64,000 bases of DNA. Origin: Deltaproteobacteria bacterium (lineage in GTDB: Bacteria; Desulfobacterota; Desulfobacteria; Desulfobacterales; C00003060). Positions 2,567 through 55,399 of the stretch are shown here, piece by piece; the first letter of the stretch is position 1; the number at the start of each line of letters is the position of its first letter. The notes beneath the pieces were generated by a model that ran no database searches, was not told the DNA's origin, and saw only the letters and a list, made by a program, of their open reading frames with translations. The position numbers were made by a program, and so were the translations under genes. The stretch spans positions 6,830 through 70,829 of the forward strand of contig QMMN01000007.1 in assembly GCA_003647275.1 (NCBI GenBank), in the 5' to 3' direction.

Positions 2567-2567
2567 T

Positions 2568-18909: not shown

Positions 18910-18939
18910 TCAATATGTAAAATGCTCAAACAGTCTAAA

Positions 18940-36835: not shown

Positions 36836-36894
36836 CCTTTAGGAAGGGCCAAAATTTAATCCAAAAACAACCAGATCAAGGAGGAAATGGACAG

Positions 36895-38558: not shown

Positions 38559-38669
38559 CTCATATGATGCCCCGGTGCACCGCTAACCAATGTACCTCCG
38601 TGGAGCAGGCCCTGATCATTGGGGGCACATAAACGGCCAGGCCAGTACAGCCAAGGGATAAACCGCCTT

Positions 38670-41600
38670 ATGAAGCCCACGCTTGATATGCTTAAGGCCG
38701 CATGTCCAGAAGTCGATCAAAGGCTTTTGAATGCCCACCTTTCCCGGCTAAGCAACCGATATTTTGACAGGTTCGCTACGCACCAGGTTTGCGAACATAT
38801 GAAAGGACTTTCACGGATCTCAACCGAACATCCCGTGGAAGTGCTGCTGGATGCAAAAGGCGATGGGAATGTGAATTGTACGGTGCTGGCCTTTGATTAC
38901 CCTTACCTGTTTTCTCTGATCACCGGCGTGTTGGCAGGCATGGGCTTCAATATTGTGTCTGGCGATGTGTTTACATACGAACGGGCCCTCGACAAACCGC
39001 TGATAGATGTCTGCCGAAGAAAACTTACTTCCCGCAGGACAGTACAAGATCCTCTGAAAAGACGGCGTATCATAGACTTTTTTTCCGGTCAGCTGGAAAC
39101 ATCTCGCGCACCTGAAACCTGGTCGGATGATCTCAAAAAAAATATGGAAGATGTCATTTCCCTTTTGGAGCGCGGTGATAGCGAATCAGTGACTGATGCA
39201 AAACATCGAGTGAACGAAATGGTCGTCAAACGGCTGGCCGATCTGCATATGGATTCGCATCCGGTCCTGTTTCCGGTGCAAATAGAATTCGATAATGAGA
39301 GCGGTCCGTACACACGGTTGAAGATCGTGTCCGAAGATACGCCGGCCTTTCTTTACACCCTGACCAATGCCCTCTCCCTCCAAGGAATTTCGATTGAGCA
39401 CGTCAGCATACGCACCATTCACGGACGAGTTGAAGATGAAATAGAGGTTGTTGATGTTCGTGGCAAAAAGATTGAGGATCCCAATGTCTTAAGTCGCGTC
39501 AAGCTTTCGGTTCTTCTTACGAAACAGTTCACTTATTTCCTCGGGAAGGCGCCCGATCCTTATGTCGCCCTGCACCGTTTTGAACAGCTTGTCGGAGACG
39601 TCTTGCGACTGCCCGAGCGAGGCCAATGGATGGACTTGCTCTCCAACCCGCACGCCCTGCAGGATCTGGCACGGTTGCTCGGGACAAGTGATTTTTTGTG
39701 GGAAGATTTTATCCGTCTCCAGTACGAGACACTCCTGCCAATGCTTAAGCCCTTTTTGGAGGGGCACCGGTTCAGCGAGCCCGTAGACCAGCTCTCCCAA
39801 AGGCTCCGAAACGCCATAAAAGGGATCAACAAGCTGGAAGAGCAACGACGAAGGCTCAATGAATTCAAGGACCGGGAGATCTTTCTTATTGACCTGGATC
39901 ATATCCTGAATCCTGAAACGGATTTCAGGGTGCTCGCTAGAAGACTGACGGTCCTGGCGGAAAATGTTGTGAACATGGCGGCAGAACTCGCTTACGCACA
40001 CCTGGTCAAACGATTTGGAAGGCCTAGAACAGCGGCCGACCTTGAGGCCACTTTTGCCATTTTGGGGTTGGGTAAAATGGGGGGAGCCGCATTAGGCTAT
40101 GCTTCTGATATTGAACTCCTTTTTGTTTACAGCGATAACGGTTCGACGGACGGTGAAGAATCTATTGAAAATGCCGAGTTTTTTGACCGCCTGGTAAGAA
40201 ATACAACGCAATTCATACAAGCCAAGAGAGAAGGCATATTTAATGTTGATCTCAGGCTTCGCCCTTATGGAAACAATGGTCCATTGGCCTGCAGCCTGGA
40301 GAATTTTTGCCGATATTACGGACCAGAAGGATCAGCTCATTCCTATGAGCGTCTTGCTCTCGTGCGTCTGCGTGCCATAGGGGGCGATAAGAATTTGGCC
40401 GCTCGGGTGGAAAGAATTCGGGATCAAATGATTTATGCCTCTAGAAACATCAACCTCAAGGAACTGCGTGAACTGAGAAACAAGCAATTTAAGGAGAAAA
40501 CAGAAGCTGGCAAGCTTAATGCCAAGTTTAGCCCTGGCGGACTCGTGGACCTCGAATATGCCGTACAGGTTCTTCAGGTCATGTATGGCAAGGATGTGCC
40601 TCAGCTTAGGACACCTCGCATACACGAGGCCCTGACTGCCTTGACCGTTGCAGGCGTTTTATCACCAGTTGAAACAGAACAACTCACGGCTGCTTACGGT
40701 TTTCTTCGCCGCCTGATTAACGGTATGCGCATGCTCCGGGGTTCAGCAAAGGATCTTTTTCTTCCCCCCATTGATTCGGATGAATTTGCTCACCTTGCCA
40801 GGCGCATGGAATACAAAGGAGGAGGCGCACTGGATCCCACGGGGCAACTCCACATGGATGTCGAAACCCACATGGCTACCGTGCGGGCCTTTGTTGAGCG
40901 GCATTTTGGGCGCGATTCATTACCGGGGTCTGCAACCGGCACCGTAGCCGACCTGGTCCTATCCGATCGTGTGCCCCATGACCTCCGGCATCAGATTCTG
41001 TCTGGTGCTGGCTTCAAAAATCCTGCACGAGCCTATGTGAACCTCCGGGCTTTGGCAGGAGACGAATCACGCCGGCAGACATTTGCCAGGCTCGCCCTGC
41101 TGGCCTTTGACATTCTTTTGAGAACTCCAGACCCCGATATGGCCCTTAACAACTGGGAGCGGTACATCCGCGCCCTGCCGAGCCCTGAATTCCACTATAA
41201 CATACTTCTTTCTCAGCCCATGCGGCTCGAAATCCTGTTGAGCGTTTTATCTGGAAGCCAGTTTCTGGCCGATACCTTGGTGAGAAACCCGGGATTTTTG
41301 GACTGGGTCACCATCCCGAAGAACTTACACCAAATCCAAGGCAGAAAGAATCTTGAGGATGAATTAAGAATGGCTTCTGAGGGCTGCAACAGCCATAAGG
41401 TATGGCTTAATAAGCTCCGTCGATTCAGAAGACGAGAGATGCTTCGGATCGGTACACGCGATATATACCTCGGGGTGTCAACCGAGGATGTCATGCTGGA
41501 ACTCTCTACTCTTGCTGAAGCCCTTACCCAGGTAGTCCTTGAGAGGGTCTGGGCAACGCTCAAGGAGGAGCAGGAGACCGCGCAGGAGGTGGAAGCGATA

Positions 41601-42476
41601 GCAAATCACTTTTGTATCCTGGCGTTCGGTAAGCTTGGAGGCTCTGAACTCAATTACAGTTCAGATATTGACCTCCTGGGAATTTATGATGCCCCTGCCA
41701 CGTCTCTGGGGTCCAATGCTCACACCTTTTTGCAAAAGCGCTTCGCCCGGGTCATGGAAAGCGTACGAGCAGACCTTTCGATGCATACAGACGAGGGGTA
41801 TGCATATCGCGTGGACCTGCGACTCAGGCCATATGGTGGAGCGGGCGAACTCGTCCCCTCTGTTTCAGCACTCATAGATTATTATCGAAACGTGGCATCC
41901 CTCTGGGAAATTCAGGCAGCCCTTAAGATTCGGCCGGTGGCAGGCCACCTACAAATAGGTGACCATTTCCTTGAGAAGATCCGCCCTGTTCTTTTGCAAC
42001 GTCGCAAACGCGAGGCCATTGTCCATGCCATTGAAAAAATGCGCAAAGCGGCCATCAAAACCTGTTCTCGTCGCAATAGGCCCATCAGGGATGTGAAAAG
42101 CGGCATGGGTGGTTTGCGCGACGTGGAATTCCTGGTTCAAGGGCTGCAGCTCATCCATGGACCAGACCATCCCGGGTTGCTGGAGAGAAATACCCTGAAC
42201 GCCCTGGAGGGACTCCAAAAGACAGACATTCTACCTGAACCAGTGGCAGCGCAACTCAGGGAAGACTACGTGTTCTTGCGACGAGTCGAACACTATCTTC
42301 AAATTCTAGAAGATCGTCAAATACATGCCCTGCCAAAAGACCCTGATGAGCTGACCGCACTGGCCAAAAGGGTCCTTGGCGCTGAAGGGAATGCAAGCCA
42401 TTTCATGGAACAACTGGAGGGATGTCTGAAGCGCATACGGGCCGCCTATATCTCGTACCTGGTGGAAAGCAAGTGA
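38670..42476 (+). CDS. glnE: Glutamine synthetase adenylyltransferase/adenylyl-removing enzyme with an N-terminal tandem ACT-like extension
   Basis: Two nucleotidyltransferase halves (GKMGGAALGYASDIELLFVY and GKLGGSELNYSSDIDLLGIY). The first ~330 aa hold two ACT-like segments (NCTVLAFDYPYLFSLITGVLAGMGFNIVSGDVFTY and YTRLKIVSEDTPAFLYTLTNALSLQGISIEHVSIRTIHGRVEDEIEV). The start is uncertain: TTG 38619 or ATG 38670. Confidence 0.85.
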   Translation: MKPTLDMLKAACPEVDQRLLNAHLSRLSNRYFDRFATHQVCEHMKGLSRISTEHPVEVLLDAKGDGNVNCTVLAFDYPYLFSLITGVLAGMGFNIVSGDVFTYERALDKPLIDVCRRKLTSRRTVQDPLKRRRIIDFFSGQLETSRAPETWSDDLKKNMEDVISLLERGDSESVTDAKHRVNEMVVKRLADLHMDSHPVLFPVQIEFDNESGPYTRLKIVSEDTPAFLYTLTNALSLQGISIEHVSIRTIHGRVEDEIEVVDVRGKKIEDPNVLSRVKLSVLLTKQFTYFLGKAPDPYVALHRFEQLVGDVLRLPERGQWMDLLSNPHALQDLARLLGTSDFLWEDFIRLQYETLLPMLKPFLEGHRFSEPVDQLSQRLRNAIKGINKLEEQRRRLNEFKDREIFLIDLDHILNPETDFRVLARRLTVLAENVVNMAAELAYAHLVKRFGRPRTAADLEATFAILGLGKMGGAALGYASDIELLFVYSDNGSTDGEESIENAEFFDRLVRNTTQFIQAKREGIFNVDLRLRPYGNNGPLACSLENFCRYYGPEGSAHSYERLALVRLRAIGGDKNLAARVERIRDQMIYASRNINLKELRELRNKQFKEKTEAGKLNAKFSPGGLVDLEYAVQVLQVMYGKDVPQLRTPRIHEALTALTVAGVLSPVETEQLTAAYGFLRRLINGMRMLRGSAKDLFLPPIDSDEFAHLARRMEYKGGGALDPTGQLHMDVETHMATVRAFVERHFGRDSLPGSATGTVADLVLSDRVPHDLRHQILSGAGFKNPARAYVNLRALAGDESRRQTFARLALLAFDILLRTPDPDMALNNWERYIRALPSPEFHYNILLSQPMRLEILLSVLSGSQFLADTLVRNPGFLDWVTIPKNLHQIQGRKNLEDELRMASEGCNSHKVWLNKLRRFRRREMLRIGTRDIYLGVSTEDVMLELSTLAEALTQVVLERVWATLKEEQETAQEVEAIANHFCILAFGKLGGSELNYSSDIDLLGIYDAPATSLGSNAHTFLQKRFARVMESVRADLSMHTDEGYAYRVDLRLRPYGGAGELVPSVSALIDYYRNVASLWEIQAALKIRPVAGHLQIGDHFLEKIRPVLLQRRKREAIVHAIEKMRKAAIKTCSRRNRPIRDVKSGMGGLRDVEFLVQGLQLIHGPDHPGLLERNTLNALEGLQKTDILPEPVAAQLREDYVFLRRVEHYLQILEDRQIHALPKDPDELTALAKRVLGAEGNASHFMEQLEGCLKRIRAAYISYLVESK

Positions 42477-42513
42477 TCTCCCTTCAGGGCAGGAGAGGAT
42501 TCACACTTCTTCT

Positions 42514-44265
42514 TTACTGTAAAGGGAGACGCAGGATAAAAGTTGTGCCTTTTCTTAATTCGCTCTGGCATTCAATAGTCCCGCGATGAGCCTCTACAAT
42601 GGTCTTGACGATCGACAACCCGAGGCCAGTACCCTTTTTGCCTTTGGTTGTAAAGAACGGGTCGAATATCTGTTCTAAGATATCCGGCCCGATCCCAGGT
42701 CCTGTATCTTCTATCCTGACCACAAGGTGCTCTCCCTCAATCCTTCCTTCAATACTGATGTTTCCTGAATCAGTCATCGCCTCCAGGCTGTTTTTGACCA
42801 AGTTATTCAAGACCTGGTACATAAGGCGGGGGTCTACATTGACGGGGGGCAAGTCAGCGGGCCAGTTGAGTTCAAGGTGGATTCCTCTTTTTTCAGTATC
42901 AGGCTGATGGATCAATAAGACCTCTCGAATCATTGCATCGATTGATCTCCTTTCTAAGCGCAGTTCCGGTTTTTTGGCAAATTGCAAGAAATTGTGGATA
43001 AACTCCCTGACCCGCGCTGATTCCTTTTCCAGTATCTTCAGTGCATTTTTCCCCGTCGGGCTGAGAGCTTCGCCCTTCAGAGTAGCCTGGATCATTCCTA
43101 CATTGTTGAGAAGGTTGCCCACCTCATGGGTTACCTTGCTGGAGGTCGTGCCAAGGACGGCTAAGTTCTTGGCGTGGGCAAGTTCCCTGGCTGTCTCTAC
43201 TTCCCGCCTTATAAATTTCTTAAGCGAAGCTGTCATCTCATTAAAGGCCAGACCTAGATCGCCAATCTCGTCCTGCGAGTCAACAGACACCTTCTGATCT
43301 AAGTCGCCCTGGCCTATTCGTTGAACCTGGCGATGCAGGTTGTGAATCGGAGTTAAGAAGCGTTTTACCCAATTCCACCCGAGGAGGATAGCTGCAAGGC
43401 AGATTAAACAGGTTATAAAGGCTGCCCGATAAATATTCTGGTATAGATATGCATAGATCTCCGGATAGGTCTGACTCAAGACAATAACCCAATCAAAGCC
43501 CGGGATATAGTAGCCCAAACAGTAGAACTTGGTTTCGTCCCTTTCTTCGATCCATTCGATCGGCGTATCTGATTCTCGGAGTTCTTTGAGTATGTCCGGT
43601 TTTTTTGCCGGAGGGGTTGTTACGACCCGGTCAATCTTCCGGTGTGCGATAAATCGTCCCGATAGATCCATGATATACACCTGACCCGTGTGACCTATAG
43701 CAATTCCCTCCAGTACATCCCAGACAGACTTGAGGTTTAATTCGCCCCAGAGGACCTCTTTTACCTCGCCTAAGCGTAATACAGGGACGGCTATATGAAT
43801 GTAAGGGATATTCTCTTTGGTCAGCATGACACCAGAAATGGCGTTTTGGCCCATAAGGACTTTCTTAAAGATCTCGCTTTGACTAAAGGTAATGTCATCC
43901 CCTTCCCGACCGGTAGATACGATCTCGTTTCCTTCTATGGAAATCAAAGAAACAGACATAAATTCAACAGCCATATGATTGAAAGCTGTCAGGGCCATCT
44001 CTTTTTGCCACCGATCCAGTTTGGTGGCAGCCATCACCAAGGCAAGGCCTTCCAAACCCTTTTGGGCATGTTCCATGTAAAGGCGAATCTCGCCGGCCGA
44101 GCTTTTGATGATATTTCTGTAATCCTGGTTTATCGTTTTCAGGAAATAATTATAGCTTGTCCAGGAAAGGATCACGCTGGTAATGATTATAGATAGGATC
44201 AGGAGGGGGAGGATAAAAAGGAGGAACTTATAGATTAATTTTGTCTTTTTGATTCTATTCATCAA
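42514..44265 (-). CDS. Sensor histidine kinase (TM, large extracytoplasmic sensor domain, TM, HAMP, HisKA, HATPase)
   Basis: Two hydrophobic segments flank about 240 aa (a Cache-like position, not verified). HAMP-like LHRQVQRIGQGDLDQKV, H-box VTHEVGNLLNN, N-box NLVKNSLEAM, G-boxes EDTGPGI and GTGLGLSIV. Confidence 0.85.
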   Translation of the reverse strand: MMNRIKKTKLIYKFLLFILPLLILSIIITSVILSWTSYNYFLKTINQDYRNIIKSSAGEIRLYMEHAQKGLEGLALVMAATKLDRWQKEMALTAFNHMAVEFMSVSLISIEGNEIVSTGREGDDITFSQSEIFKKVLMGQNAISGVMLTKENIPYIHIAVPVLRLGEVKEVLWGELNLKSVWDVLEGIAIGHTGQVYIMDLSGRFIAHRKIDRVVTTPPAKKPDILKELRESDTPIEWIEERDETKFYCLGYYIPGFDWVIVLSQTYPEIYAYLYQNIYRAAFITCLICLAAILLGWNWVKRFLTPIHNLHRQVQRIGQGDLDQKVSVDSQDEIGDLGLAFNEMTASLKKFIRREVETARELAHAKNLAVLGTTSSKVTHEVGNLLNNVGMIQATLKGEALSPTGKNALKILEKESARVREFIHNFLQFAKKPELRLERRSIDAMIREVLLIHQPDTEKRGIHLELNWPADLPPVNVDPRLMYQVLNNLVKNSLEAMTDSGNISIEGRIEGEHLVVRIEDTGPGIGPDILEQIFDPFFTTKGKKGTGLGLSIVKTIVEAHRGTIECQSELRKGTTFILRLPLQ

Positions 44266-44430
44266 CGACCGAACCTGGACAAGCTGGAATTAAACAAGCG
44301 AAGGGACTCATCACGCCCCCCCTCAAGGCGGACGCCATAAAACACGAAAGAAACAGGAATGGCGAGGCTACTGGCAGGTACGTATAAAAGATCCTTTACT
44401 CATTGTAAAGAATATTTAAAGGGGTAAGAT

Positions 44431-44483
44431 ATGAACTGCAACAGCGAGCGCATTCCCCGCAGCTTGCTCCAGGGGGCTTCAAT
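44431..44483 (+). repeat. 53-nt interspersed repeat, copy 3 of 3
   Basis: ATGAACTGCAACAGCGAGCGCATTCCCCGCAGCTTGCTCCAGGGGGCTTCAAT lies in the MFS-to-kinase spacer. Confidence 0.7.
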
Positions 44484-44489
44484 GAATAA

Positions 44490-45668
44490 TTATCTCTTTG
44501 CCAGAAGGGATGCCGAAACCATAATAAAAGAGCCGGTCAATAGAAGGGATTGGGGGCCCCATATCTTTAATACGAGGGCGCTGCTTAATATGGTCCCTAA
44601 ATAACATGCGCCTCTGTAAGTTGATAACAATGATATGGTTTTCCCTATATGGGTCCTCGGGCTGTTTTGCTGGATGAGGCTTTCCAAAAAGATATGTATT
44701 AAGGTAAAGCCGCAACCAAACAGGATCATCAGCAAGGCAACCTGGATGTAGGTCGTGAGTTGACCAAGGATGGCCATGGCGCCCCCGAGGATCAAAAAGG
44801 TGAAGGAGAGGATGGTTTGCTGCCTGAAGGTTGATGAACATCTGGGCAACAGGAAGGTAGCCAGGCAGGAACCAGCCTGAAATCCAGACATGATCAATCC
44901 CCAATCAGCAATATTCCTCCCAAAATGTATCTTAAAAAAAATGGGAAGACCAAGATTTAACACCCCGCCTCCCAGGAGGACAAACCCGAAGATCATAAAA
45001 TAGGCCTTGAGGTCATGATTGTCTGTAAATGGCTCTCTGTACTTAAAAAGCAAAGGCCTTAGACCTTTACCTCGCCTCAGACAATGGGTCGATTGTTCAG
45101 CGATCTGACCAAATTTCGGAAGTCCGTAAATGGCGCACACCGAGAGTGTGAAAAGAAGCCCGGCCAGCCCTAAAGCGACCCCCTGACCTGTTTTCAGGAC
45201 AATCCATCCGATGAGCCATGGACCGAATATCCGCCCTACAAGAGATACCCTTTCATTAAGTGAGTTAAAAGAGATAAGCTCATCTTTGGGTATCAACATG
45301 GGGGTCAGGGAAAGTCGCCCGATATGGAAAAAGAGAGAACCAATCATAAAGCAAAGATAGGCAGGAAAGATGACCCAGAGGGATGCTTTAAAGACAAGGA
45401 TCCCGACCAAAAGGCATTTGCTTAGATTGACGATGATGAGCCACCTTCTTCCCCCGACCCGATCAATCCAGAAGCCCGCAAAAGGGCTCAGGAAGATAGA
45501 AGGTGCCTGCTCAATGACGCACATCACCAGGAGATTGGATAAGGCACGCTCACCCTTAAAAATCAGCAAGTCGAGCAGGGTTAATTGGACGAACTGGTTT
45601 CCCAGATCTGACAGAAGATCAGCCGATATGATCAGGTACTTGGGGTGAATCCGGTCAATCCCTTTCAC
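44490..45668 (-). CDS. MFS transporter (putative exporter of the adjacent peptide locus)
   Basis: 392 aa, hydrophobic throughout with about 11-12 predicted helices. Its GTG start overlaps the corrected rSAM stop as GTGA. Confidence 0.75.
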   Translation of the reverse strand: MKGIDRIHPKYLIISADLLSDLGNQFVQLTLLDLLIFKGERALSNLLVMCVIEQAPSIFLSPFAGFWIDRVGGRRWLIIVNLSKCLLVGILVFKASLWVIFPAYLCFMIGSLFFHIGRLSLTPMLIPKDELISFNSLNERVSLVGRIFGPWLIGWIVLKTGQGVALGLAGLLFTLSVCAIYGLPKFGQIAEQSTHCLRRGKGLRPLLFKYREPFTDNHDLKAYFMIFGFVLLGGGVLNLGLPIFFKIHFGRNIADWGLIMSGFQAGSCLATFLLPRCSSTFRQQTILSFTFLILGGAMAILGQLTTYIQVALLMILFGCGFTLIHIFLESLIQQNSPRTHIGKTISLLSTYRGACYLGTILSSALVLKIWGPQSLLLTGSFIMVSASLLAKR

Positions 45669-46980
45669 GCTGCTTTTTTCAGGCGGATATTCTCTCCCTG
45701 AGACAAAACCGCAGAGGCCCTCTGTCTGATGTAATCTTCAAGAAAAAAACGATAGGTATTGTAATGACAATCGACCCCGTTAAAATCCTTCTCATGAACC
45801 AGGGCCTGCATGCGGCACCCCCCATGCAGATGGGCAGAATGGGGCATTTGTTGAGACATCTGTCCGGTAATCTTCGCTTCAGTAGTTGGGATTCTGAGAC
45901 AAAGTCGATCCCTTTGGTGACGTGTCCATAGGCCATTTCCCCACCTTGAAGGGATGGGCATGGGATAATCGAGCCATCTGTGTCAAAGACAAACCGGGCT
46001 CGAAAATCAGCCATACAGGTGTTGGAGGGGGCCTCACGATCCTGCAGATAGCCCCGTTTTTCAGCCTCCTGCATCAGGTATTGAAGTATTTTAGGATCGC
46101 CCATCCCGGAATCATAGGGGCTTTCTCCTCTTCTGGCCAGGATGGGGGTGAAGGTGATGTTTTCAATAGCAATATGGCGCTCGCCCATATCATCCAGCAT
46201 CTCTGGAATGCTCAGAAAATCAAGTGCCCCGCTGTCGTATTGACATTCAATGTTGATGGGAATCAGACCGGAAACAGCCTGTAGATTCTCCATGATCAGG
46301 TCATAGGTCTTCCCATTATTCTTGGAGGGCCGCAAAAAATCGTGAACAGGGGCCGGCCCGGCCAGGCTGACCCGAATGCCTGTGAGTCCTACCTCTTTCA
46401 TGCCCGAGATCATGGATGGCCTGAGGAGCGTGCCGTTGGTGGTAATGGTAAAGCCATATTCGATCCCCCTGCCCAGGCAGTAATAAAACCGCCTGGCAGC
46501 ACTTTCTAAGATGATCTCAGAATTAAGGAGCGGCTCACCCCCAAGGTAGTCGTCTTCAACCCTCTGAGGGTTCTTTTCCTGGATGATCTCAATGTAGAAC
46601 CGGTCCATGGCCCGGGCTGTGTCAGGGGACATCTCCCTGGCTTCAGGGTCCAGGATGCAGTAGCGACATCGATTATTACATTTCCGGGTGACCAGGACCT
46701 TGGATCTTAATGTGCTGAAGTCATGGACGTATTGTTGCTTCCAGTTCTCAAACACAATGGTTTCGTCCACGCCCTCCTTGACCAGGAATCCCTGGTCACA
46801 GAGCATATCGATGGCAGCCGGATCGGCTGGTGCGACGGGATCGCTCAGGATATAAGACCAGGTCTTTTCAGGGATCAGGATAAAGGCCCCTGTCATGGTC
46901 TGATAGAGGGCGATGAGCGCTTCTCGGCTGTTTTCAACAGCAATATCCACCGTGAATCTGGATTTCTTAAAAAAAGCCAT
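45665..46980 (-). CDS. Radical SAM/SPASM peptide-maturase-like enzyme, interrupted by an apparent 1-nt frameshift in a G6 run (ORF-track pieces 45679-46980 and 45665-45961)
   Basis: CNNRCRYC (CxxxCxxC) at aa 101-108, after a ~100-aa N-terminal extension (RRE-like position). CX13GX4C (CMADFRARFVFDTDGSIIPC). After a frame shift at the C-run 45818-45823, the C-terminus reads CLNKCPILPICMGGCRMQALVHEKDFNGVDCHYNTYRFFLEDY, which completes the SPASM cysteine pattern. Confidence 0.8.
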
Positions 46981-46995
46981 GATGTGATCTCCTTT

Positions 46996-47035
46996 AAAAA
47001 CGGCCCCCCGGGCAAACCAGGTCTGCCCGGGGGCC
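46996..47035 (-). terminator. Intrinsic terminator/attenuator hairpin between the precursor peptide and the rSAM gene
   Basis: The minus strand reads GGCCCCCGGGCA-gacctggtt-TGCCCGGGGGGCC (12 bp, one bulged G), followed by GTTTTT and then the rSAM RBS AAAGGAG. Confidence 0.55.
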
Positions 47036-47051
47036 TAAAATAGTCGTCGGG

Positions 47052-47141
47052 TTAGTTGCGGGAGCTTGGAGCATTTCCACAGCACATGAGTCCTGACTTT
47101 TTGACCCTGTATGTGCCCTTGTTGATCACAATCAGTTTCAT
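47052..47141 (-). CDS. Putative RiPP precursor peptide, 29 aa: MKLIVINKGTYRVKKSGLMCCGNAPSSRN
   Basis: Absent from the ORF track because it is below the size cutoff. ATG at 47141 is preceded by AAGGAGG with a 9-nt spacer, and TAA is at 47052-47054. It lies 71 nt upstream of, and co-oriented with, the rSAM/SPASM gene. The C-terminal half contains a Cys-Cys pair. Confidence 0.6.
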   Translation of the reverse strand: MKLIVINKGTYRVKKSGLMCCGNAPSSRN

Positions 47142-47402
47142 GATCGCACCCCTCCTTTCTTGAGTGATTTCAGTCATAACATTAGCCAATGCGCGCCTGG
47201 CTGGTGTTTTTTCATTATCAGGATGTGTGCCATGATTTGAGATCTGTGAGGGGATTGTCTATCTCATTGTTATTGTAAGGAAAGAGGATATGGATCAAGG
47301 GATGAAGAGGGCTTTTGAAAGAGTAAGGGTTTGAACTTTTTGAGGGTGAGTTTGAACAGCGTGGATATAAGTGTTAACTTGGCGCGTCCTTGAAACTGTG
47401 AG

Positions 47403-47470
47403 GCCTCCCCGTGCTTCCGCACGGAGGGTTCTGCCTGACGGCAGCGCTTCGCGTCCGGGGAGCAAGCCGG
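47403..47470. repeat. GC-rich multi-hairpin (cloverleaf-like) repeat, copy 2
   Basis: It has the same outer helix CTCCCCG/CGGGGAG and the identical segment TTCTGCCTGACGGCAGCGCTTCGCGTCCGGGGAGCA. The first hairpin is GTGC-ttcc-GCAC instead of GCCC-tccc-GGGC. Confidence 0.7.
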
Positions 47471-47526
47471 GTCAAACCAATCCTCAAGCAAACCGGTCCT
47501 CAAGCCCGCCAAAGGCGGACGCGCCT

Positions 47527-49101
47527 CTAACCCGATTTAAGCGAGGCATATCTGAGGCGGTAGATCCCTTCGTGGGTGAGAGAAAACGGGAAAGGCAATT
47601 TAAACCGTTTGGACATCACATCAATGGCTGTTTTATGAAACAAAAACGTGCCAGGCTGAAGCGCTTGGATCCGGGCATCGATCTTATAAAAAAGCGCTTT
47701 TTGCTTGAATGGGTCTTTTTCATCAAGGGCCTGACAGATCAGGCGGGTCACCTCAGGATCTTCAAATGAACCAGCCTCAGACCTTTTGGGGCGATCAAAA
47801 GACCATGACTGTTTCAAGAATTCAGGATCCCGGTAAACGCCTCTCAACTCTGTTAGCACGGCCTGAAACTGATTGTTTCTATAGTATCTTCTTTTAAGCT
47901 CCTCAAAAGGAACGGATTGCAGGCGCACCTTGATCCCGAGATCATTCAGGCAAATCTGCAGGTATTGGGCGACCTTTTTTTCAATCTGGCTCTCTTTAAA
48001 GACAAGGATAGTAAATTCAAACCCCTTTCCACCCTTTTCAAGATAGCGGCCCTCATGATCATAAGACCAGCCTGCTTGTTTCAGGAGCGCCAGTCCCTTT
48101 TTGGGGTTGTATGGTATGGGTTGGACCTCGGGGTTGTGATAAGGGGAGTCCACCCCCATGGGGCCGACTGCAATCCTCCCAAAGCCCCTTAAGATCTTCT
48201 TTACGATGTATGCCCTGTCAATGGCATAAGAAAAGGCGAGTCGAACCCTTGGATCAGAAAAAAGGGGATCGGTTGTATTGTAGAGGAGGATCGTGTACCA
48301 ACGCAGAGGGTAGAGATCAAAATAGTATCTTTTTCCATACTGCTTCATCATCTCATAGTTTTTGGGGGAAATCTCCTGTGCAATATCTGTCTCCCCTGAA
48401 AGGACCCTTGTCCATGACTTTTCTTTGTCCGGCTGAAAATAGAAGACAACTCGATCTATGGAAGGGCGGCCATGAAAATAATCTTTATTCGCCTCAAGGC
48501 AGACTTCCTTTTCTCCTTTTCTGTATTTGAATCTAAACGGGCCAGAGCCAATGGGGTGATTGTAATAATCGATCTTATCTTCATGGGGTTGAGGAAGAAT
48601 CTCCATGTCCCAGATCTTTTGAAGAAATTCAGGATCGTTTCTCTTAAGACCAATACAAATAACCGTATCTGACAAAGGAAAGATCCGGTCTATTAGAGAA
48701 AACAAAGCAGGGCGATTGTTCTTTAGCACCCCCTCCAATGCATACTGGACATCCCTTGAAGTCACAGGGTGTTTGTTGTGGAACAGGGCGTCTTTTCTGA
48801 GATGGATCGTCCAGGTAAAACTCTCGGAATCATAGGTCCATTTGAGGGCCAGATCCGGTTCGAGTTCTCCGTTGGCATTTGGGACAAAAAGATAACTGTA
48901 CAACAAAGGGAAGATATGGTTTGAACCGGAGGCATAAACATATGTGGGATTCAAAGAGGTAAAAGGGGCGCTCACATCATAGCGAAGGACATTTTCATTT
49001 TTGTTTTTTTCCCTGGCAGGAGGGGTGCCAGGTTGTTCACAGGAAAGAATAAAACCGGTAAAGAAAATAAATACTAGGATTGAACTCAGATATCGAAGCA
49101 T
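47527..49101 (-). CDS. ABC-type family-5 (peptide/nickel/opine, OppA/DppA-like) substrate-binding lipoprotein, with no adjacent permease or ATPase
   Basis: 524 aa. Signal peptide with a possible lipobox (FILSC) and family-5-like blocks (LRYDVSAPFTSLNP, GSGPFRFK). No cognate membrane components lie nearby. Confidence 0.8.
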   Translation of the reverse strand: MLRYLSSILVFIFFTGFILSCEQPGTPPAREKNKNENVLRYDVSAPFTSLNPTYVYASGSNHIFPLLYSYLFVPNANGELEPDLALKWTYDSESFTWTIHLRKDALFHNKHPVTSRDVQYALEGVLKNNRPALFSLIDRIFPLSDTVICIGLKRNDPEFLQKIWDMEILPQPHEDKIDYYNHPIGSGPFRFKYRKGEKEVCLEANKDYFHGRPSIDRVVFYFQPDKEKSWTRVLSGETDIAQEISPKNYEMMKQYGKRYYFDLYPLRWYTILLYNTTDPLFSDPRVRLAFSYAIDRAYIVKKILRGFGRIAVGPMGVDSPYHNPEVQPIPYNPKKGLALLKQAGWSYDHEGRYLEKGGKGFEFTILVFKESQIEKKVAQYLQICLNDLGIKVRLQSVPFEELKRRYYRNNQFQAVLTELRGVYRDPEFLKQSWSFDRPKRSEAGSFEDPEVTRLICQALDEKDPFKQKALFYKIDARIQALQPGTFLFHKTAIDVMSKRFKLPFPFSLTHEGIYRLRYASLKSG

Positions 49102-49104
49102 TTA

Positions 49105-50241
49105 TTATGATAGAAAAACCTCAGAGAGTCTGTATCTGGACTGATTTGCCTTTTTTTTATTATGCACACAGATATGGTTCTTTTTCAATATAGAAAGATA
49201 TTTGCCTGCTGTTCCGTATTTATTCCTGTCGGATTTGGCCTTGTCACTCAGGAACCTTGCAAACTCGAGCCGGGAAAATGGTCTTTGGCTGGTCTTTAAA
49301 AGAAATTCATGGATGGTCTCTATGGTGGTACACTTCAAGGTGCGATGCCATTGTTTTGCTGCCCCGCCATTATCAGATATGGTCGCTCCCTTTAGCACCG
49401 CTAAGAGCTCGTCACTCTTAACGCTGGCGTAAGCCTCATATTCTCTCCCTGACCCGTTTGATATTTCTTCGGGAAGGTCTTGAATGGTTATCTCCCTTTG
49501 TTTGGTTAGGATAACCGCCCGTTCGATGATGTTTTCCAATTCCCTGATATTTCCGGGAAATGAATAGTTCATCAGGACCTCAAGGGCCTTGTTTGATATC
49601 CCCAGAATATCTTTTTTGTTTTCACAGGCATATTTTGCCACAAAATGATCAACCAGGGGCGGGATATCCTCTTTATGGTCTCTCAAAGGGGGAAGCTGAA
49701 TCTGGATAACATTCAGACGATAAAACAGATCCTCCCTGAACCAACCTTCCTGAACGCCTTCCTTCAGGTCTTTATTGGCGGCCGCGATGAAGCGTACATC
49801 CACCTTGATGGTCCTGGTGCCTCCGACCCGTTCAAATGCCATCTCCTGGAGTACCCTCAGTAATTTGACCTGAAGGGATAGAGACATCACAGAAACCTCA
49901 TCCAGGAAGAGGGTGCCCTTATCCGCCAGCTCGAATCGGCCTTTTTTCATGGCAATAGCCCCGGTAAAAGCCCCTTTTTCGTGTCCAAACATCTCGCTTT
50001 CACACAGGTTATCAGCCATGGCCGAGCAGTTGACCGCAATAAAGGGTTTGTCTCTCCGTGGGCTATGATCATGAATGGCCCTGGCAATCAACTCTTTTCC
50101 TGTTCCACTTTCCCCGACAATCAGTACCGTGGCCCTGGTGGGGGCAACCATTTCGATGAGTTCATAGATCTTTAACATGGGTCCGCTTTTCCCCACCATA
50201 TTATGAAAGTGGGGTTGTTGGATAGCTTCTTGCGGTAACAT
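49105..50241 (-). CDS. Sigma-54-dependent activator consisting of an AAA+ domain with an atypical C-terminus (no receiver or sensor domain)
   Basis: Starts about 15 aa before the AAA+ core. [14 protein letters not shown] (HEKGAFTGA), and FPGNIRELEN. The last ~120 aa lack the usual AA-LG-SR-TLYRK Fis-type HTH signature. Confidence 0.8.
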   Translation of the reverse strand: MLPQEAIQQPHFHNMVGKSGPMLKIYELIEMVAPTRATVLIVGESGTGKELIARAIHDHSPRRDKPFIAVNCSAMADNLCESEMFGHEKGAFTGAIAMKKGRFELADKGTLFLDEVSVMSLSLQVKLLRVLQEMAFERVGGTRTIKVDVRFIAAANKDLKEGVQEGWFREDLFYRLNVIQIQLPPLRDHKEDIPPLVDHFVAKYACENKKDILGISNKALEVLMNYSFPGNIRELENIIERAVILTKQREITIQDLPEEISNGSGREYEAYASVKSDELLAVLKGATISDNGGAAKQWHRTLKCTTIETIHEFLLKTSQRPFSRLEFARFLSDKAKSDRNKYGTAGKYLSILKKNHICVHNKKKANQSRYRLSEVFLS

Positions 50242-50336
50242 ATGCGCCTCCTTCCTTGCTCGGTCGTATCCGATCGGTCACACAAAGGGTTTATAAAAAA
50301 CACTATAGGTGAACTAGGGCTAAGGGAGGAGTCATC

Positions 50337-52211
50337 TTAAAACTCAAAGTTTACCCCGCCCTCAATCCAGCGATCAGGTTGAGGAAAGACGTGGCGGTAG
50401 ATGTAGGTAGAGTTGGTAAGATTGTGTACAGCACCAAAGAGAGTTAGGTCGCCGTATCGGTCCGGAAAAGGGGGTTTGACCTGAAGGAGATAGTCAAAGA
50501 TAAAGACGCGATCTCGGGTCTCGGGGTAGCTGGAATAGTTATAGACATATTTTCCGACAATGGAATGGGTCATCCATTGATGTGTGTAGGAGGCCGAGAC
50601 ATTATAAAGGGTCCTGGGGATATCCTGGATCACCTTGTCGGTCTCTTCATCTCTCACATCCATAAAGCTCCCGCCGAATGAGAGGGTCAACCCAAAGCCA
50701 AAGGTGGCCCGGATGTTGCCTTCTACGCCCTGCCGGGTGACCTTATCGATATTTTCATACTTTTTGGTGTCCGGGTTATAGCGGATGAGGTCCTTGATGT
50801 CCGCCCGAAAAAGGTTCAGTTCGAGCCTCAGGAACCTGAAGGGTCGCACCTCGCCGCCAAGCTGATAGTTTATCCCGGCCTCTGGTTTCAGGTCCTTGTT
50901 GCCATACTGGGGATCGTTTACCCAGGCACCGGGTGGGGCTGAAAAGCCTTTAGCGACCTGGGCTCGGATAAGGGCATCCACGCCTGAAATACGATAGACC
51001 ATTCCGCCCGAAGGGCTGACCTCAGAGCCAAAATCATGGTTATCATCATAGCGAGCCCCGGCATTAAAAGAGAACGCTTCCAGGTTGAAGGTATCATTGG
51101 CATAAATGGCCCAGTTTCTGGAGTTATACTCTTTGGCATAAGAGCTGAAATCGTATCGGCCCCAATCCCCGTCAAACCCCAGATTAAACCTGTTTAAATC
51201 ATTGGTGTAGTAACTCAGCCGGGCACTGCCCCCCCAGGTCTCCTCTAAGTAATGGAAATAGTTTTCCCTGTGATCAGGATAAACATCGTCAATCCAGTTA
51301 AAGAATCGATGATGCCGTCCCTCAAGAGTCAGATCAAGATTTTCAACAGGCGAGGTCTCAAAGAGAAGGCGTTGGTAGGTGCGTCTGCGATAGAGGTCAT
51401 CCCAGAAATCCGGATAATTAAGAACGGGATCTGCATTGCGGCCCACATCATAGCTGTAGGCAAAGTTAAGGCGACTTGTCTCACCCAGTTCATGGTTGAT
51501 TTTGGCATATACGGCCTCCTGTTCGTACCCGGTATGCTCGATGAACCCGTTGCTCTCCTCATGGGTAAGGGAGAGTAGGAACCCAAAACGATCCTTCGTA
51601 CCGCTGAAGGTTCCGCGGTTCTTTAAGGTTTTAAACTCTCCATAAGAGGTGCGGAGATCGGCCACAAACGGCTTTTTGGGGTCGGGTTCTTTGGTGATGA
51701 TGTTGATCAAACCACCCAGGGAAGAACCCCAGGCCGAGGAGGCCGCCCCCTTGTAGATCTCGATCCGCTCGATCGTATCAATGGGAATATAAGAAAGGTC
51801 AGCCATGGGATTGGCCAGTTGGTTGAGGGGGATCCCATCCTGATAGATGGCCACATGCCGGACGTCAGAACCCTGGATGGTAGCCGTGGACTGGCTCCCC
51901 AATCCACCGTTAAACTCCACGTAGATACCTGGTACATACTGGAGCACCTCGGCCGCATTGGAGGCCGGCATCTTTTCTATATCATCCCTGGTAATAACCG
52001 TGATGTTTGCAGCGACCTCCTGTCTGGGGGTCTCCAGGCGGGTGGCAGTCACCACGATTTCTTCCAATTTATATTCATGGACTTCGGGTCCGGAAGGCAT
52101 ATCTGCTGCCCAAGCTTTCAAAAAGAACATAACCCAAAGAACAGAGCTAACAATAAGAACTACCTCAGTTTTCGGTTGTTTCATCCAACTCGTAATTCTT
52201 AATTTTTTCAA
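50337..52211 (-). CDS. TonB-dependent outer-membrane receptor (small, BtuB/CirA-sized)
   Basis: Signal peptide ending AWA, TonB-box/plug EEIVVTATR, and a plug domain. The C-terminal beta-barrel ends in GGVNFEF (terminal aromatic). The likely start is the internal Met at 52184. Confidence 0.85.
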   Translation of the reverse strand: MKKLRITSWMKQPKTEVVLIVSSVLWVMFFLKAWAADMPSGPEVHEYKLEEIVVTATRLETPRQEVAANITVITRDDIEKMPASNAAEVLQYVPGIYVEFNGGLGSQSTATIQGSDVRHVAIYQDGIPLNQLANPMADLSYIPIDTIERIEIYKGAASSAWGSSLGGLINIITKEPDPKKPFVADLRTSYGEFKTLKNRGTFSGTKDRFGFLLSLTHEESNGFIEHTGYEQEAVYAKINHELGETSRLNFAYSYDVGRNADPVLNYPDFWDDLYRRRTYQRLLFETSPVENLDLTLEGRHHRFFNWIDDVYPDHRENYFHYLEETWGGSARLSYYTNDLNRFNLGFDGDWGRYDFSSYAKEYNSRNWAIYANDTFNLEAFSFNAGARYDDNHDFGSEVSPSGGMVYRISGVDALIRAQVAKGFSAPPGAWVNDPQYGNKDLKPEAGINYQLGGEVRPFRFLRLELNLFRADIKDLIRYNPDTKKYENIDKVTRQGVEGNIRATFGFGLTLSFGGSFMDVRDEETDKVIQDIPRTLYNVSASYTHQWMTHSIVGKYVYNYSSYPETRDRVFIFDYLLQVKPPFPDRYGDLTLFGAVHNLTNSTYIYRHVFPQPDRWIEGGVNFEF

Positions 52212-53520
52212 TAAGGGTTTTGCGGCTTATACCCAATAAATCAGCCGCTTTGGTCTTATTGTTTTTTGTACGTCTCAAGGCCAGACCGATAAAAAACCTC
52301 TCCACATCCCTCAAGTCCAGATCAGATATTTTCTCATACTCTCCTTTCCCAAATGGAAGGTGTTTGGTGGTGATCATATTATCCTGGCAGGTTATCACGG
52401 CCCTCTCTATGACGTTTATCAGTTCCCGGACATTGCCCGGCCAATCATACTCCCTGAGGGATAACATGGCATTCGTAGAAATACCGGTTATTGGTCGACG
52501 ATACGCCTCACTGAACCTTTTAAGATAGAACTCGGCTATAAGAGGGATGTCCTCCTTTCTATCCCTCAAGGGTAGGATTTCAATCGTATAGATGTTTAAA
52601 CGGTAAAAAAGATCCTGACGAAAGCGACCACAGGCAACCTCTGCTTCCAGGTTGCGGTTGGTGGCCACGAGGAGGCGAAAGTCCGAATATATGGGGTAGA
52701 TTCCTCCCACGCGCATGAAGGTCTTGGTCTCCACGATCCTGAGGAGTTTAGACTGAAAAAAGGGCGGAGCCTCGCTGATCTCATCCAGAAAAAGAATCCC
52801 CTTGTGAGCCACCTCGAAAAGACCTATCTTTCGATCTATCGCACCAGTAAAGGCCCCTTTTTCATGGCCGAACAACTCACTTTCCAAAACCCCGAGGGCA
52901 AATTCATTGCAACTTACTGCAAAAAACGGCTTATCGCGCCTGTCGCTTAGATTATGGATGGCCCGGGCAACCAGCTCCTTCCCTGTACCGGTCTCCCCGC
53001 AGATAAGGACAGTCACAGGAAGATCAGCGACCTCCTCTATGGATCTAGCGACCTTCTTGATTCCCTCTGATTGTCCTATGATGGTCACCGGCGTTTTTAT
53101 CTGGAGGGACCTTTCTCTACGAAGCGAGGCGAGCTCTTTCAATATCTCCCTCTTGGCCAAGGCCTCCCGAACGGTTATCCAAAATAGATCTAATTTGTCG
53201 TTGATCGGCTTTTCAAAATAATGGAAGGCCCCGCGCTTGACCGCCTGGATAGCCCCTTCTGTAGAGCCGAAGGCCGTAATCAGGATAACGGGGATATCAG
53301 GATACAGGTCCTGAACCCTGCTAAAAAGCTCGGTCCCGCTCATCTCAGGCATCTGCACATCTGAGATAATCAGGTCTACAGGCTCCTTGTTCAGGACCTC
53401 GAGCGCCTTTTTGGCCGATGTGAGAGGAACGATATCAAAGCCCTGTGCCCCTTCTAAAGAGAGGAAAAGTTCCAGGAAGGCTTCATTATCGTCTATCAAC
53501 AGAATCTTGGGCTTGCTCAT
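52165..53520 (-). CDS. NtrC-family sigma-54-dependent response regulator (REC-AAA+-Fis HTH)
   Basis: REC (ILLIDDN...DLIISDVQMPEMSG), GETGTGKE, GAFTGA, and C-terminal KAADLLGISRKTLIEKIK. Confidence 0.9.
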   Translation of the reverse strand: MSKPKILLIDDNEAFLELFLSLEGAQGFDIVPLTSAKKALEVLNKEPVDLIISDVQMPEMSGTELFSRVQDLYPDIPVILITAFGSTEGAIQAVKRGAFHYFEKPINDKLDLFWITVREALAKREILKELASLRRERSLQIKTPVTIIGQSEGIKKVARSIEEVADLPVTVLICGETGTGKELVARAIHNLSDRRDKPFFAVSCNEFALGVLESELFGHEKGAFTGAIDRKIGLFEVAHKGILFLDEISEAPPFFQSKLLRIVETKTFMRVGGIYPIYSDFRLLVATNRNLEAEVACGRFRQDLFYRLNIYTIEILPLRDRKEDIPLIAEFYLKRFSEAYRRPITGISTNAMLSLREYDWPGNVRELINVIERAVITCQDNMITTKHLPFGKGEYEKISDLDLRDVERFFIGLALRRTKNNKTKAADLLGISRKTLIEKIKNYELDETTEN

Positions 53521-53747
53521 AATAAGGTGTTTGCTGACAAGTACCTATGAAATTCATTCGAAAATGTCCATATTTTTTATCAAAGAAAGTCTCTTCCCGC
53601 CCTTCTGTGTAGAATCGTAACACTGAATTAACGCAACAAATCGCAATATTGTAACCTTTTGTAACAGTAAAACGCCTGGCTCATTTCTGCCCCGAGAATT
53701 AAACTCGGATTACAGATGGTTAAGGTCCATTTGGAGAATTGTTTTTT

Positions 53748-53762
53748 TGGCATCATGATTGC
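53748..53762 (+). promoter_or_regulatory. Sigma-54 (-24/-12) promoter of the stand-alone receiver gene
   Basis: TGGCATCATGATTGC with correct spacing, 47 nt upstream of the first ATG (53809). Confidence 0.65.
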
Positions 53763-53808
53763 TAAAATTTTTATTAAAATGCTAACCTAATATTTTGCAA
53801 TAGCAGAG

Positions 53809-54300
53809 ATGCCCCGATGTATGAGGCATCCTGATGATAGGAGATGGATAACCCTGAACGCCCAAATGCTTGGTAAACCTGTTCAGATTTTGTTGGTGGA
53901 AGACAATCCTGGGGATGTGCGCCTGACGCAGGAAGCCCTCAAGGACAGCAGGATGCTTGACAACCTGCATATAGCCAAGGATGGCCTGGAGGCCATGGCC
54001 TTCCTGCACCGAGAAGGCCGGTATACTGACGCGCCTCGTCCAGACTTGGTCCTGCTCGACCTGAACCTGCCAAAGAAAGCCGGTCGTGAGGTGCTCGCAG
54101 AGATAAGGGCCGACGAAAGCCTGAGACGAATCCCTGTGGTGGTCTTGACCACGTCCCAGGATGAAGAAGACATCATCAAGGCCTACAATCTCAACGCGAA
54201 CTGCTATATTACCAAACCGGTTGAGTTGGAACAGTTCTTCAAAGTGGTGAAGTCGATCGTAGAGTTTTGGTTTACCGTTGTGAAACTGCCAGGTGAGTGA
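53809..54300 (+). CDS. Single-domain response regulator (receiver only)
   Basis: ILLVEDNPGDVRL, DLVLLDLNLPKKAG, PVVVLTTS and YITKP. The start could instead be Met20 (53866). Confidence 0.85.
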   Translation: MPRCMRHPDDRRWITLNAQMLGKPVQILLVEDNPGDVRLTQEALKDSRMLDNLHIAKDGLEAMAFLHREGRYTDAPRPDLVLLDLNLPKKAGREVLAEIRADESLRRIPVVVLTTSQDEEDIIKAYNLNANCYITKPVELEQFFKVVKSIVEFWFTVVKLPGE

Positions 54301-54317
54301 AAAAATAGACGGATATC

Positions 54318-54473
54318 TTGCCTGAACCGGTGGCAGCGCAACTCAGGAAATCCGACGTGTTTTTTTGCGGCGGATCGAACACGATCTTCAAATTCTTGAA
54401 GTTCGTCAAATAAAATACATGCCCCGCCAAAAGACCCCCATGAACCAACCGCACTGGCCAAAAGGCTCTTGGT
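54318..54473 (+). pseudogene. Decayed fragment duplicating the 3' region of glnE (cf. 42231-42379)
   Basis: CCTGAACCGGTGGCAGCGCAACTCAGG...TCGAACACGATCTTCAAATTCTTGAAG...CGCACTGGCCAAAAGG aligns with the glnE codons for LPEPVAAQLREDYVFLRRVEHYLQILEDRQ...TALAKRVLG. By eye about four-fifths of positions are identical. Indels break the frame, so it translates as LPEPVAAQLRKSDVFFCGGSNTIFKFLKFVK then stop. Confidence 0.75.
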
Positions 54474-54802
54474 CTAGATAAACCCTTCACAGGCTATTTC
54501 CAAACCACGACAATCCAGGTTTCAGCCATCTTTTGGTGTTTGTCAGCCTCATGCCAGGTGTACGGCTGTTTGGCTCAACATCCTGTAAGGAGGGCTGGCC
54601 AGCAGCAACGTGGCCACTCATTATTGTGAATGAATCATAGAAATCTTCAATAACTAATAGGCAAAAAAATCAATATTACCTATTTGACAGGTGTATGAAA
54701 GCAAGAGACAATTCTATTTTTTGGAGAAAGGGCGTCAGTCGGCCTGATGCCGACAAGGACCGCTGACAGCAGCTCAATTCATCCGATAAAGGGGGAGGTC
54801 AT

Positions 54803-55399
54803 ATGGAAACATTGAATTGCCGGGGGCTTGCCTGTCCACAGCCTGTACTCAGGACCAAGCACTTTGTGGAATCCAATCCCCAGGTCCCGGAATTCACCAT
54901 CATCGTCGATAATGCTGCCTCAGCCCAAAATGTGGTCCGGTTTGTGGAGAGCCAGGGTTTTAGTGCCTCTCTGCAACAAAAGGGCACTGACTTTGAAATC
55001 AAGGCTATAAAGTCTGAGGAAATCGGTGCCGAAGCCGCTGGGAGGGGAGAGGTTAAGTCGAGCGAGAAGATCCTGGTGATGATCACCAAAAATACCATGG
55101 GTTCTGGAGATGATGTGCTGGGGGAAGGGCTCATGTTAAATTTTTTAAACACCCTTAACGAGATGGGCGAAGCCCTTTGGAGATTGGTTTTCCTCAACAG
55201 CGGGGTAAAGCTGACGATTGCGGGGGCCAAGACCTTGCCTGCCATACAACAACTGGAGGCACAGGGTATTAGCGTCCTGGTATGCGGTACCTGCCTGAAT
55301 CATTTCAATCTGCTGGACCAAAAGCGGGTGGGTGAGACCACGAACATGCTTGACATTGTGACAAGCCTACAGCTTGCCGACAAAGTGATCGGTGTGTGA
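54803..55399 (+). CDS. yedF: YedF-like protein (TusA/SirA-like N-domain with a CPxP motif plus a DsrE-like C-domain); sulfur/selenium carrier family
   Basis: LNCRGLACPQPVLRTK (TusA-type Cys-Pro-x-Pro). The C-terminal half ILVMITKNTMGSGDDVLGEGLM...VLVCGTCLNHF matches my memory of YedF. 198 aa. Confidence 0.65.
   Translation: METLNCRGLACPQPVLRTKHFVESNPQVPEFTIIVDNAASAQNVVRFVESQGFSASLQQKGTDFEIKAIKSEEIGAEAAGRGEVKSSEKILVMITKNTMGSGDDVLGEGLMLNFLNTLNEMGEALWRLVFLNSGVKLTIAGAKTLPAIQQLEAQGISVLVCGTCLNHFNLLDQKRVGETTNMLDIVTSLQLADKVIGV

Follow-up and report, generated by a model that had tools for sequence, protein, structure and literature searches.

A frame-broken internal fragment of glnE at the far side of an accessory gene cassette: a likely rearrangement relic in a deltaproteobacterial genome

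The window, that is, the whole 64-kb stretch of DNA that was analysed, carries on its + strand an intact glnE gene and, 12 kb further on, at the other side of a block of accessory genes, a second and broken piece of the same gene. The open reading frame of glnE spans 38619-42476 (1285 codons), and since all relatives begin to align at the ATG at 38670 we take this codon to be the true start, which gives a long form of GlnE of 1268 amino acids (38670-42476) made up of two GlnE/GlnD_UR_UTase modules and an N-terminal extension of ~330 amino acids with an ACT-like stretch (Pfam). The match of this extension (38670-39660) to the ACT domain is below threshold. GlnE is ~1270 amino acids long in the window and in all 80 relatives, and enterobacterial GlnE, of ~950 amino acids, is without the ~330-amino-acid N-terminal extension. 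Adjoining glnA-glnE, the region 5945-38319 is crowded with genes for enzymes that use glutamine, among them asparagine synthase, CTP synthase, a GlmS-like protein, a class-II amidotransferase, carA, carB, GMP synthase, hisF, glutamate-synthase-like genes and NAD synthase; it also includes a gene for a GAF-sigma-54 activator (8098-9621), and parts of this series are syntenic in strain NaphS2 (L022). The window opens with a low-GC stretch (1-3723; GC 0.39-0.45) with a DnaB-C-terminal-like helicase gene and several ORFs without a Pfam match, which may be what is left of a mobile element and lies 40 kb away from the glnE repeat.

The block between the two copies is an accessory cassette whose genes were assigned by Pfam and lie, with one exception, on the - strand. 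Its left end is a dCache-HAMP histidine kinase gene (42514-44265), which converges on glnE across a 37-nt spacer and has orthologues of 74-80% identity in two metagenomic loci, L086 and L090. Next come the genes for an MFS transporter (44490-45668; 84% identical to its L086 orthologue) and a radical-SAM enzyme (45679-46980), and, just upstream of the latter, a 29-amino-acid Cys-Cys peptide ORF with a strong ribosome-binding site (47052-47141, - strand; MKLIVINKGTYRVKKSGLMCCGNAPSSRN). The peptide is conserved in L086 and L089 with its Cys-Cys pair retained, and is probably a precursor modified by the radical-SAM enzyme. At 45818 the window has a C-run one C shorter than that of the ENA, Logan and JGI assemblies, which shifts the 3' end of the radical-SAM gene (an ORF of 433 amino acids, against 438 elsewhere); this may be a sequencing error or homopolymer variation. 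The cassette continues with genes for a family-5 solute-binding protein (47527-49101), relatives of which were found in a metagenome scan, a sigma-54 activator without a receiver domain (49105-50241), a TonB-dependent receptor (50337-52211) and an NtrC-type sigma-54 response regulator with REC, AAA+ and HTH_8 domains (52165-53520), which forms the right end of the cassette in a third metagenomic locus, L087. The spacer between the binding-protein gene and the peptide and radical-SAM genes contains one copy (47393-47475) of an 84-nt GC-rich repeat; the other, 86% identical and on the same strand, lies in a spacer upstream of an Fe-alcohol-dehydrogenase gene (18834-18913), and the repeat has no Rfam match.

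The only + strand gene of the interval encodes an Rcp1-type single-domain receiver (163-amino-acid ORF at 53809-54300, probable start at 53866; Pfam). Upstream of it lies a perfect match to the sigma-54 promoter consensus (TGGCATCATGATTGCT; 53748-53763, + strand), a pattern match in a window where the total of such matches is not above chance; another, with one mismatch, is found upstream of glnA (36821-36836). The receiver gene is intact, as its C-terminus, KLPGE followed by the stop codon, is the usual ending of the family, and the idea that the rearrangement had re-made this C-terminus was rejected because that ending is typical of Rcp1-type proteins. The family is ubiquitous (best non-self match 77% identical), and no orthologous context was found among the receiver homologues.

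To the right of the glnE fragment, the first gene of the flank is a yedF-like TusA-DsrE gene (54803-55399, + strand), followed by two HGD-D genes and ABC transporter genes. The spacer in front of it holds a second short copied piece (54547-54586, - strand), which is identical at 34 of 40 positions to the reverse complement of 36038-36076 and scores 39.7 bits against a maximum of 32.6 bits in 100 shuffles. Its source lies within a 1.2-kb non-coding region upstream of glnA, and the copy is inverted and lies 75 nt past the fragment. The window also contains a dispersed element, GCATTCCCCGCAGCTTGCTCCAG, with a GCAGC-TT-GCTGC hairpin, at 36382-36404 (+ strand) upstream of glnA, at 38517-38539 (- strand) in the glnA-glnE gap and at 44450-44472 (+ strand) in the gap between the cassette kinase and MFS genes. 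The same element occurs in L006 (7144-7166) and L095 (1710-1732), in the glnA-glnE gap of a relative of 72% identity and in an unrelated genome.

We compared the 3' part of glnE (42100-42520) to the region past the receiver gene (54250-54700) by blastn and obtained a single alignment, which pairs 42234-42380 with 54321-54472 at 82% identity (126/153) and has 8 gap positions and an E value of 1e-33. A previous reading of the letters alone (hereafter the sequence-only reading) had seen about 155 nt at some four-fifths identity to glnE, which this alignment bears out, and the three exact runs that it quoted are all present in both copies. Global alignment stretched the match to 42217 and 54303, giving a fragment of ~170 nt (54303-54472, + strand) whose source in the intact gene (42217-42380, + strand) comprises codons 1183-1237 of 1268, within the C-terminal GlnD_UR_UTase domain (PF08335). 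The copies are in direct orientation, 12 kb apart and 82% identical over 153-170 nt, and in a self-blast of the whole 64-kb window they were the top non-self match (E 3e-29), with two copies only. Against shuffled controls, the comparison that the sequence-only reading had itself proposed, the core of the repeat reached a Smith-Waterman score of 99.5, as opposed to 9.2 +/- 1.4 in 500 shuffles, statistics that rule out chance similarity as its origin.

Both edges of the fragment are sharp. In flanks of 240-330 nt per side, similarity to the left of 54303 was at the level of 500 shuffles (Smith-Waterman), and to the right (42381-42620 against 54473-54802) the score was 10.0, compared to 10.2 +/- 1.4 for shuffles, that is, a chance value, so the weaker similarity previously thought to extend to about 54560 falls away. 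The left edge lies 2-5 nt past the stop codon of the intact receiver gene, and close to this 5' edge is the best-conserved run of the repeat (26 of 27 nt identical). The right edge corresponds to a position 96 nt (31 codons and the stop) before the glnE stop codon, and what had been described as a copy of the 3' end of glnE is therefore an internal piece, though a direct copy does stand at both sides of 42.4-54.3 kb, bracketing the interval as proposed.

The fragment is a decayed copy of its source, a pseudogene fragment. Indels of +2, +5 and -1 nt break its frame, as the sequence-only reading had recognized, and split it over three frames, the pieces of which match GlnE residues 1202-1253 (numbered by the 1285-codon ORF). 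In the global alignment the copies differ by 24 substitutions, distributed as 8, 4 and 12 over codon positions 1, 2 and 3, about ten of them causing amino-acid replacements. These replacements make the fragment aberrant at positions of GlnE that are conserved among 60 relatives (DY to SD, EHY to EHD, LED to LEV and, twice, L to P), at which the intact glnE retains the consensus. Taken together with the frame breaks, such replacements at conserved residues are the mark of a copy that is dead. Its identity is 82% to the glnE of its own genome and at most 69% to the glnE of any relative, which indicates that its source was the same lineage or a very close one.

The dN/dS ratio between the copies is 0.20 on a tiny sample (13 synonymous and 10 non-synonymous differences), whereas a model of one neutral and one constrained branch predicts ~0.5-0.6 (one-sided P 0.03-0.06, or ~0.15 by a rough estimate, not computed by a tool, that allows for a 2:1 transition bias). 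The ratio is lower than expected for a copy that was neutral from the start and hints that some of the divergence may have arisen at a time when both copies still functioned, in two separate lineages, as an inter-lineage origin would have it. As a means of telling an intragenomic from an inter-lineage origin it is marginal only.

The same structure is found in at least five independent assemblies of the species (98-99.5% nucleotide identity). Searching through 90%-identity clusters of the window's proteins, we obtained L107, L108/L109, L110 and L111, which are 98.3-99.5% identical to the window and match its arrangement all the way from glnA to yedF, the fragment included; Logan and ENA contigs likewise agree with the gene order of the window. 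The junction of glnE and the kinase gene is present in Logan, ENA and three JGI/NCBI assemblies. As for the fragment, it is 100% identical in ENA contig ERZ27227320 k141_508232 and is present with 1-2 differences in the JGI contigs L107 and L108. Since the fragment occurs in independent assemblies, and k141_508232 differs from the window elsewhere, the repeat is not an assembly artefact; the window is itself an independent assembly, given its 1-nt homopolymer change at 45818 relative to the others. The 1-nt deletion in the fragment is confined to the window strain and absent from L107 and L108, the latter of which has one extra substitution, and at glnE position 42350 it is the window strain alone that has changed, the other strains having the base found in the fragment. 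Thus both copies still drift independently, at about the background rate. Presence or absence of the fragment was not polymorphic among the assemblies that cover it, and as the structure is common to every assembly of the species, it is old by comparison with the 1-2% by which the strains have diverged. We found no genomes between 99% and ~80% identity.

Two further features set the strains apart. Directly to the right of the fragment (54473-54512) the window differs from L107/L108 at 10 of ~40 positions, against an average of ~1.2%, and other clusters of strain differences lie at 47.0-48.6 kb, 53.6-53.8 kb and 55.2-55.4 kb. In addition, L110 and L111 have frameshifting deletions in glnE of 44 and 68 nt (window-equivalent 41961-42005 and 41961-42028), which have their first base in common, ~200 nt before the duplicated segment; the two contigs also begin at the same coordinate, and the deletions are either real glnE-inactivating variants or assembly artefacts.

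We then turned to more distant relatives. Scanning GTDB (one genome per species) with the GlnE C-terminus yielded 80 loci, the best of them 70-72% identical and from Desulfatiglandales-like MAGs; another search for homologues of the GlnE C-terminus returned only fragments of at most 65% identity and, as the query itself was absent from its matches, was uninformative. The glnA-glnE pair is conserved in the relatives, and synteny stops at the glnE stop codon. The 64 loci with downstream sequence hold ~200 different gene clusters in the first 6 kb past glnE, and even among the five closest relatives no fewer than four different neighbours are seen there. Rearrangements at the 3' flank of glnE are thus common, the stop codon being a clade-wide synteny breakpoint. 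Four relatives have, immediately past glnE, the orthologue of the GAF-sigma-54 activator that the window encodes at 8098-9621, which demonstrates a reshuffling of nitrogen genes around glnE. A gene of the cassette or of the yedF cluster was found downstream of glnE in none of these 64 relatives (GlnE identity at most 72%), and none of the 80 loci has a second copy of the glnE 3' part.

Using the binding protein as query, we recovered the cassette itself from metagenomes, in three further settings and with 64-84% identity at the protein level. In L086 the order is TonB receptor, activator, binding protein, radical-SAM enzyme, MFS transporter and kinase, followed by YegS/diacylglycerol-kinase, GHMP-kinase and adenylate-kinase genes. 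L087 has the regulator, the TonB receptor and two binding-protein genes, with PAS proteins past the regulator, and contains neither the receiver gene nor yedF. In L090 the binding-protein gene is directly followed by the kinase gene and then by an unrelated convergent gene. The cassette is thus modular and occupies different places. In L086 and L090, where the kinase end is visible, glnE-like DNA beside the kinase gene is absent. Orthologues of the window YedF (76-88% identical) were most commonly encoded between deoC-DHQS and ksgA-DUF2062-tsaD, and glnE adjoined yedF in none of the nine contexts inspected. In L102, L104 and L106, from other Thermodesulfobacteriota, yedF orthologues of 76-81% identity stand alone between deoC-DHQS and ksgA-DUF2062-tsaD, unlike the window yedF, which heads an operon of HGD-D and ABC-transporter genes.

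These data bear on the proposal of the sequence-only reading that the repeat is the classic scar of an island and marks 42.4-54.3 kb as inserted or rearranged DNA. An accessory, relocatable cassette does lie there: it occupies three other contexts and is absent after glnE in 64 relatives, so the variable position expected of an island is observed. We also agree that the interval has no integrase. No integrase, transposase or recombinase gene was found in 42.5-54.8 kb, where all ORFs of at least 150 amino acids have non-mobility Pfam domains and the spacers (224, 546, 288 and 502 nt) leave no room for a further gene, and the 64-kb window has no tRNA genes. The displaced copy ends at 42380/54472 and does not continue through the original stop codon into an ancestral flank, and a replacement 3' end is not carried along in L086 and L090. 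An empty site, with glnE directly followed by yedF, which that reading had looked to relatives for, appeared neither in the 64 relatives nor in the nine YedF contexts, where the orthologues are found in other surroundings, and all closer genomes are of the same species and bear the insert. Nor did composition, a comparison that the same reading had suggested, single out the block: its tetranucleotide profile comes 4th among 53 windows of matched size, close to that of the core region at 20-33 kb, and it has a small hairpin repeat in common with the glnA region. The block is not a clear compositional outlier. With several of its defining features failing, the classic island scar is not demonstrated.

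What we observe, then, is a repeat with sharp edges, its decay and an accessory cassette, and from these the order and type of events have to be reconstructed. That the fragment is a non-functional relic, the dead rearrangement scar of glnE codons 1183-1237, we consider very likely. For the route by which it arose we tentatively favour, as the leading candidate, two steps: a direct duplication of 42217-54302 and a later trimming. In the first step a unit reaching from within glnE (42217) to just past the receiver stop codon (54302) would have been duplicated in direct orientation, either as a spontaneous tandem duplication or, equivalently, by RecA-dependent single-crossover (Campbell-type) insertion of a circular copy of the unit, which would stem from the same or a closely related genome. 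By either route a second 3' part of glnE would come to lie head-to-tail directly after the receiver gene. In the second step nearly all of the redundant second copy would have been deleted, the first 170 nt being kept and left to neutral drift. Such a sequence of events would explain the orientation of the repeat, its left edge at the end of the receiver gene, the position of its right edge inside glnE and the absence of mobility genes; it is supported by a direct copy whose left edge abuts the proposed unit end and whose edges are both sharp. The geometry also fits, as 54302 is joined to 42217 with an A-run common at the joint, although the unit is defined from the repeat itself and is not independent of it. 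On the other hand, this route needs two events, the dN/dS of 0.20 between the copies speaks, marginally, against it, and neither self-blast nor Smith-Waterman searches revealed further remnants of the second copy in the window. An intermediate state was likewise not encountered, the assemblies of the species (at least five) all being in the same trimmed state, and the 40-nt piece from upstream of glnA is left unexplained.

Other origins have to be weighed against duplication and trimming. The fragment could be a short patch, ~170 nt of glnE that a single copying event placed in the spacer past the receiver gene, for instance as filler or templated DNA during break repair or by a template switch in replication, in which case the repeat would say nothing on how the 12-kb cassette arrived. 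A single event would then account for both sharp edges and for the internal position within glnE, and the significant inverted 40-nt piece from upstream of glnA, 75 nt further on, makes the spacer look like a mosaic of the gln locus. Yet that piece could belong to a dispersed repeat family, like other small repeats of the window, the left edge lies within 5 nt of the end of the last gene on the cassette side, and templated filler of ~170 nt copied from 12 kb away is, to our knowledge, not a commonly documented event in bacteria; we regard a patch as rather unlikely, if quite conceivable. More doubtful still is a site-specific element that entered glnE with a replacement 3' end (42217-42476) and the cassette, displacing the native 3' end to 54.3 kb, and later lost its integrase and the distal 96 nt. 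The precedent is e14, a cryptic prophage of E. coli K-12 flanked by icd and a displaced C-terminal pseudogene, icdC (Hill, Gray and Brody 1989, as described in PMC13626634). Here too a direct repeat of the 3' portion of a housekeeping gene flanks an accessory block, of 12 kb, the cassette sits at different sites in relatives, the dN/dS of 0.20 would agree with two orthologous ends that were both functional at one time, and the 26/27-nt run is close to the 5' edge, the expected place of a crossover core. An element of this type predicts a native 3' end running through its stop, an adjacent recombinase, a replacement end carried everywhere and empty sites. At the glnE locus, by contrast, a recombinase gene is absent and the spacers leave no place for it, and the far copy reaches neither the stop codon nor any old flank, whereas a displaced native end would run through the one into the other. 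The L086 and L090 cassettes have no glnE-like DNA beside the kinase gene, no empty site appeared in 64 relatives or nine YedF contexts, composition is unremarkable, and the cargo consists of genes for regulated uptake and peptide modification, without mobility genes.

The fragment might instead be a functional non-coding element derived from glnE, for example an RNA that forms the 3' UTR of the receiver transcript or is read from the other strand. It is present in all strains, and its transcription by read-through is plausible given the perfect sigma-54 promoter match upstream of the receiver gene and the lack, in a promoter/terminator scan, of a terminator-like site after it. Against this, no Rfam family matched at gathering thresholds (a CRISPR-DR match, of E 4.7, is a chance one), the folding energy is at shuffle level on both strands (z -0.69 and -0.67), the strains differ, including the fresh 1-nt deletion, at about the background rate, and the substitution pattern fits decay of a coding sequence; we hold such an element to be exceedingly improbable. 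It would similarly be a great surprise if the fragment were not dead and a sigma-54-driven 3' UTR or antisense transcript acted on glnE expression or on a factor binding the glnE 3' region, which would couple the uptake and peptide cassette to the control of glutamine synthetase adenylylation. In a less exotic variant, glnE may have been the homology anchor for an integrase-free capture of the cassette. What likelihood is left falls to a complex rearrangement of some other type. In all, the repeat can be explained with no integrating island, either by tandem or Campbell-type duplication with trimming or by a short copied patch.

Among known systems, the e14 prophage encodes its own site-specific recombinase, excises and has left an icdC that is a C-terminal fragment of the gene and only slightly diverged (PMC13626634). 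The glnE locus resembles e14/icd, as portrayed there, in having an intact housekeeping gene and a direct pseudogene of its 3' portion at the far end of an insert of 12-15 kb, and differs from it in lacking a recombinase, in a far copy that is frame-broken, 82% identical and without the last 31 codons and stop, in a cargo that is not phage-like and in that no empty site is known. The block also lies directly after the 3' end of a core gene and is bounded by a direct repeat, features reminiscent of integrative elements. Elements of this kind that target and restore the 3' ends of protein-coding genes include ICESt1/ICESt3 in fda, whose repeats are short exact att cores with an integrase and excisionase adjacent; the glnE locus has neither. 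Homology-facilitated illegitimate recombination, which uses one homologous anchor and one illegitimate joint, would allow an integrase-free import by way of a glnE anchor and fits two slightly diverged glnE ends, although it normally deletes rather than duplicates recipient DNA, and the right edge of the fragment would still need a later deletion. Partial gene duplicates are left by tandem or Campbell-type duplications once these collapse, and the glnE fragment matches such remnants in the lack of mobility genes and its character as a neutral relic, and would match them in its head-to-tail joint (54302 to 42217), given the unit defined from the repeat itself. Duplications usually collapse precisely, by homologous recombination, whereas the glnE locus needs an imprecise deletion that spared 170 nt, and no intermediate was observed.

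To summarize, the fragment is an ordinary genomic relic of an already known type, of which it is a new example. It has little import beyond annotation, where 54303-54472 should be entered as a glnE pseudogene fragment and not as a gene or attachment site. Beyond this, the 3' flank of glnE emerges as a rearrangement hot spot in the Desulfatiglandales-like lineage, and if intermediate genomes are found the locus could show how integrase-free cassettes move, a modest question. The repeat also helps to delimit a portable sigma-54-controlled cassette, with its Cys-Cys peptide, radical-SAM enzyme, MFS transporter, binding protein and TonB receptor, which may deserve study in its own right.
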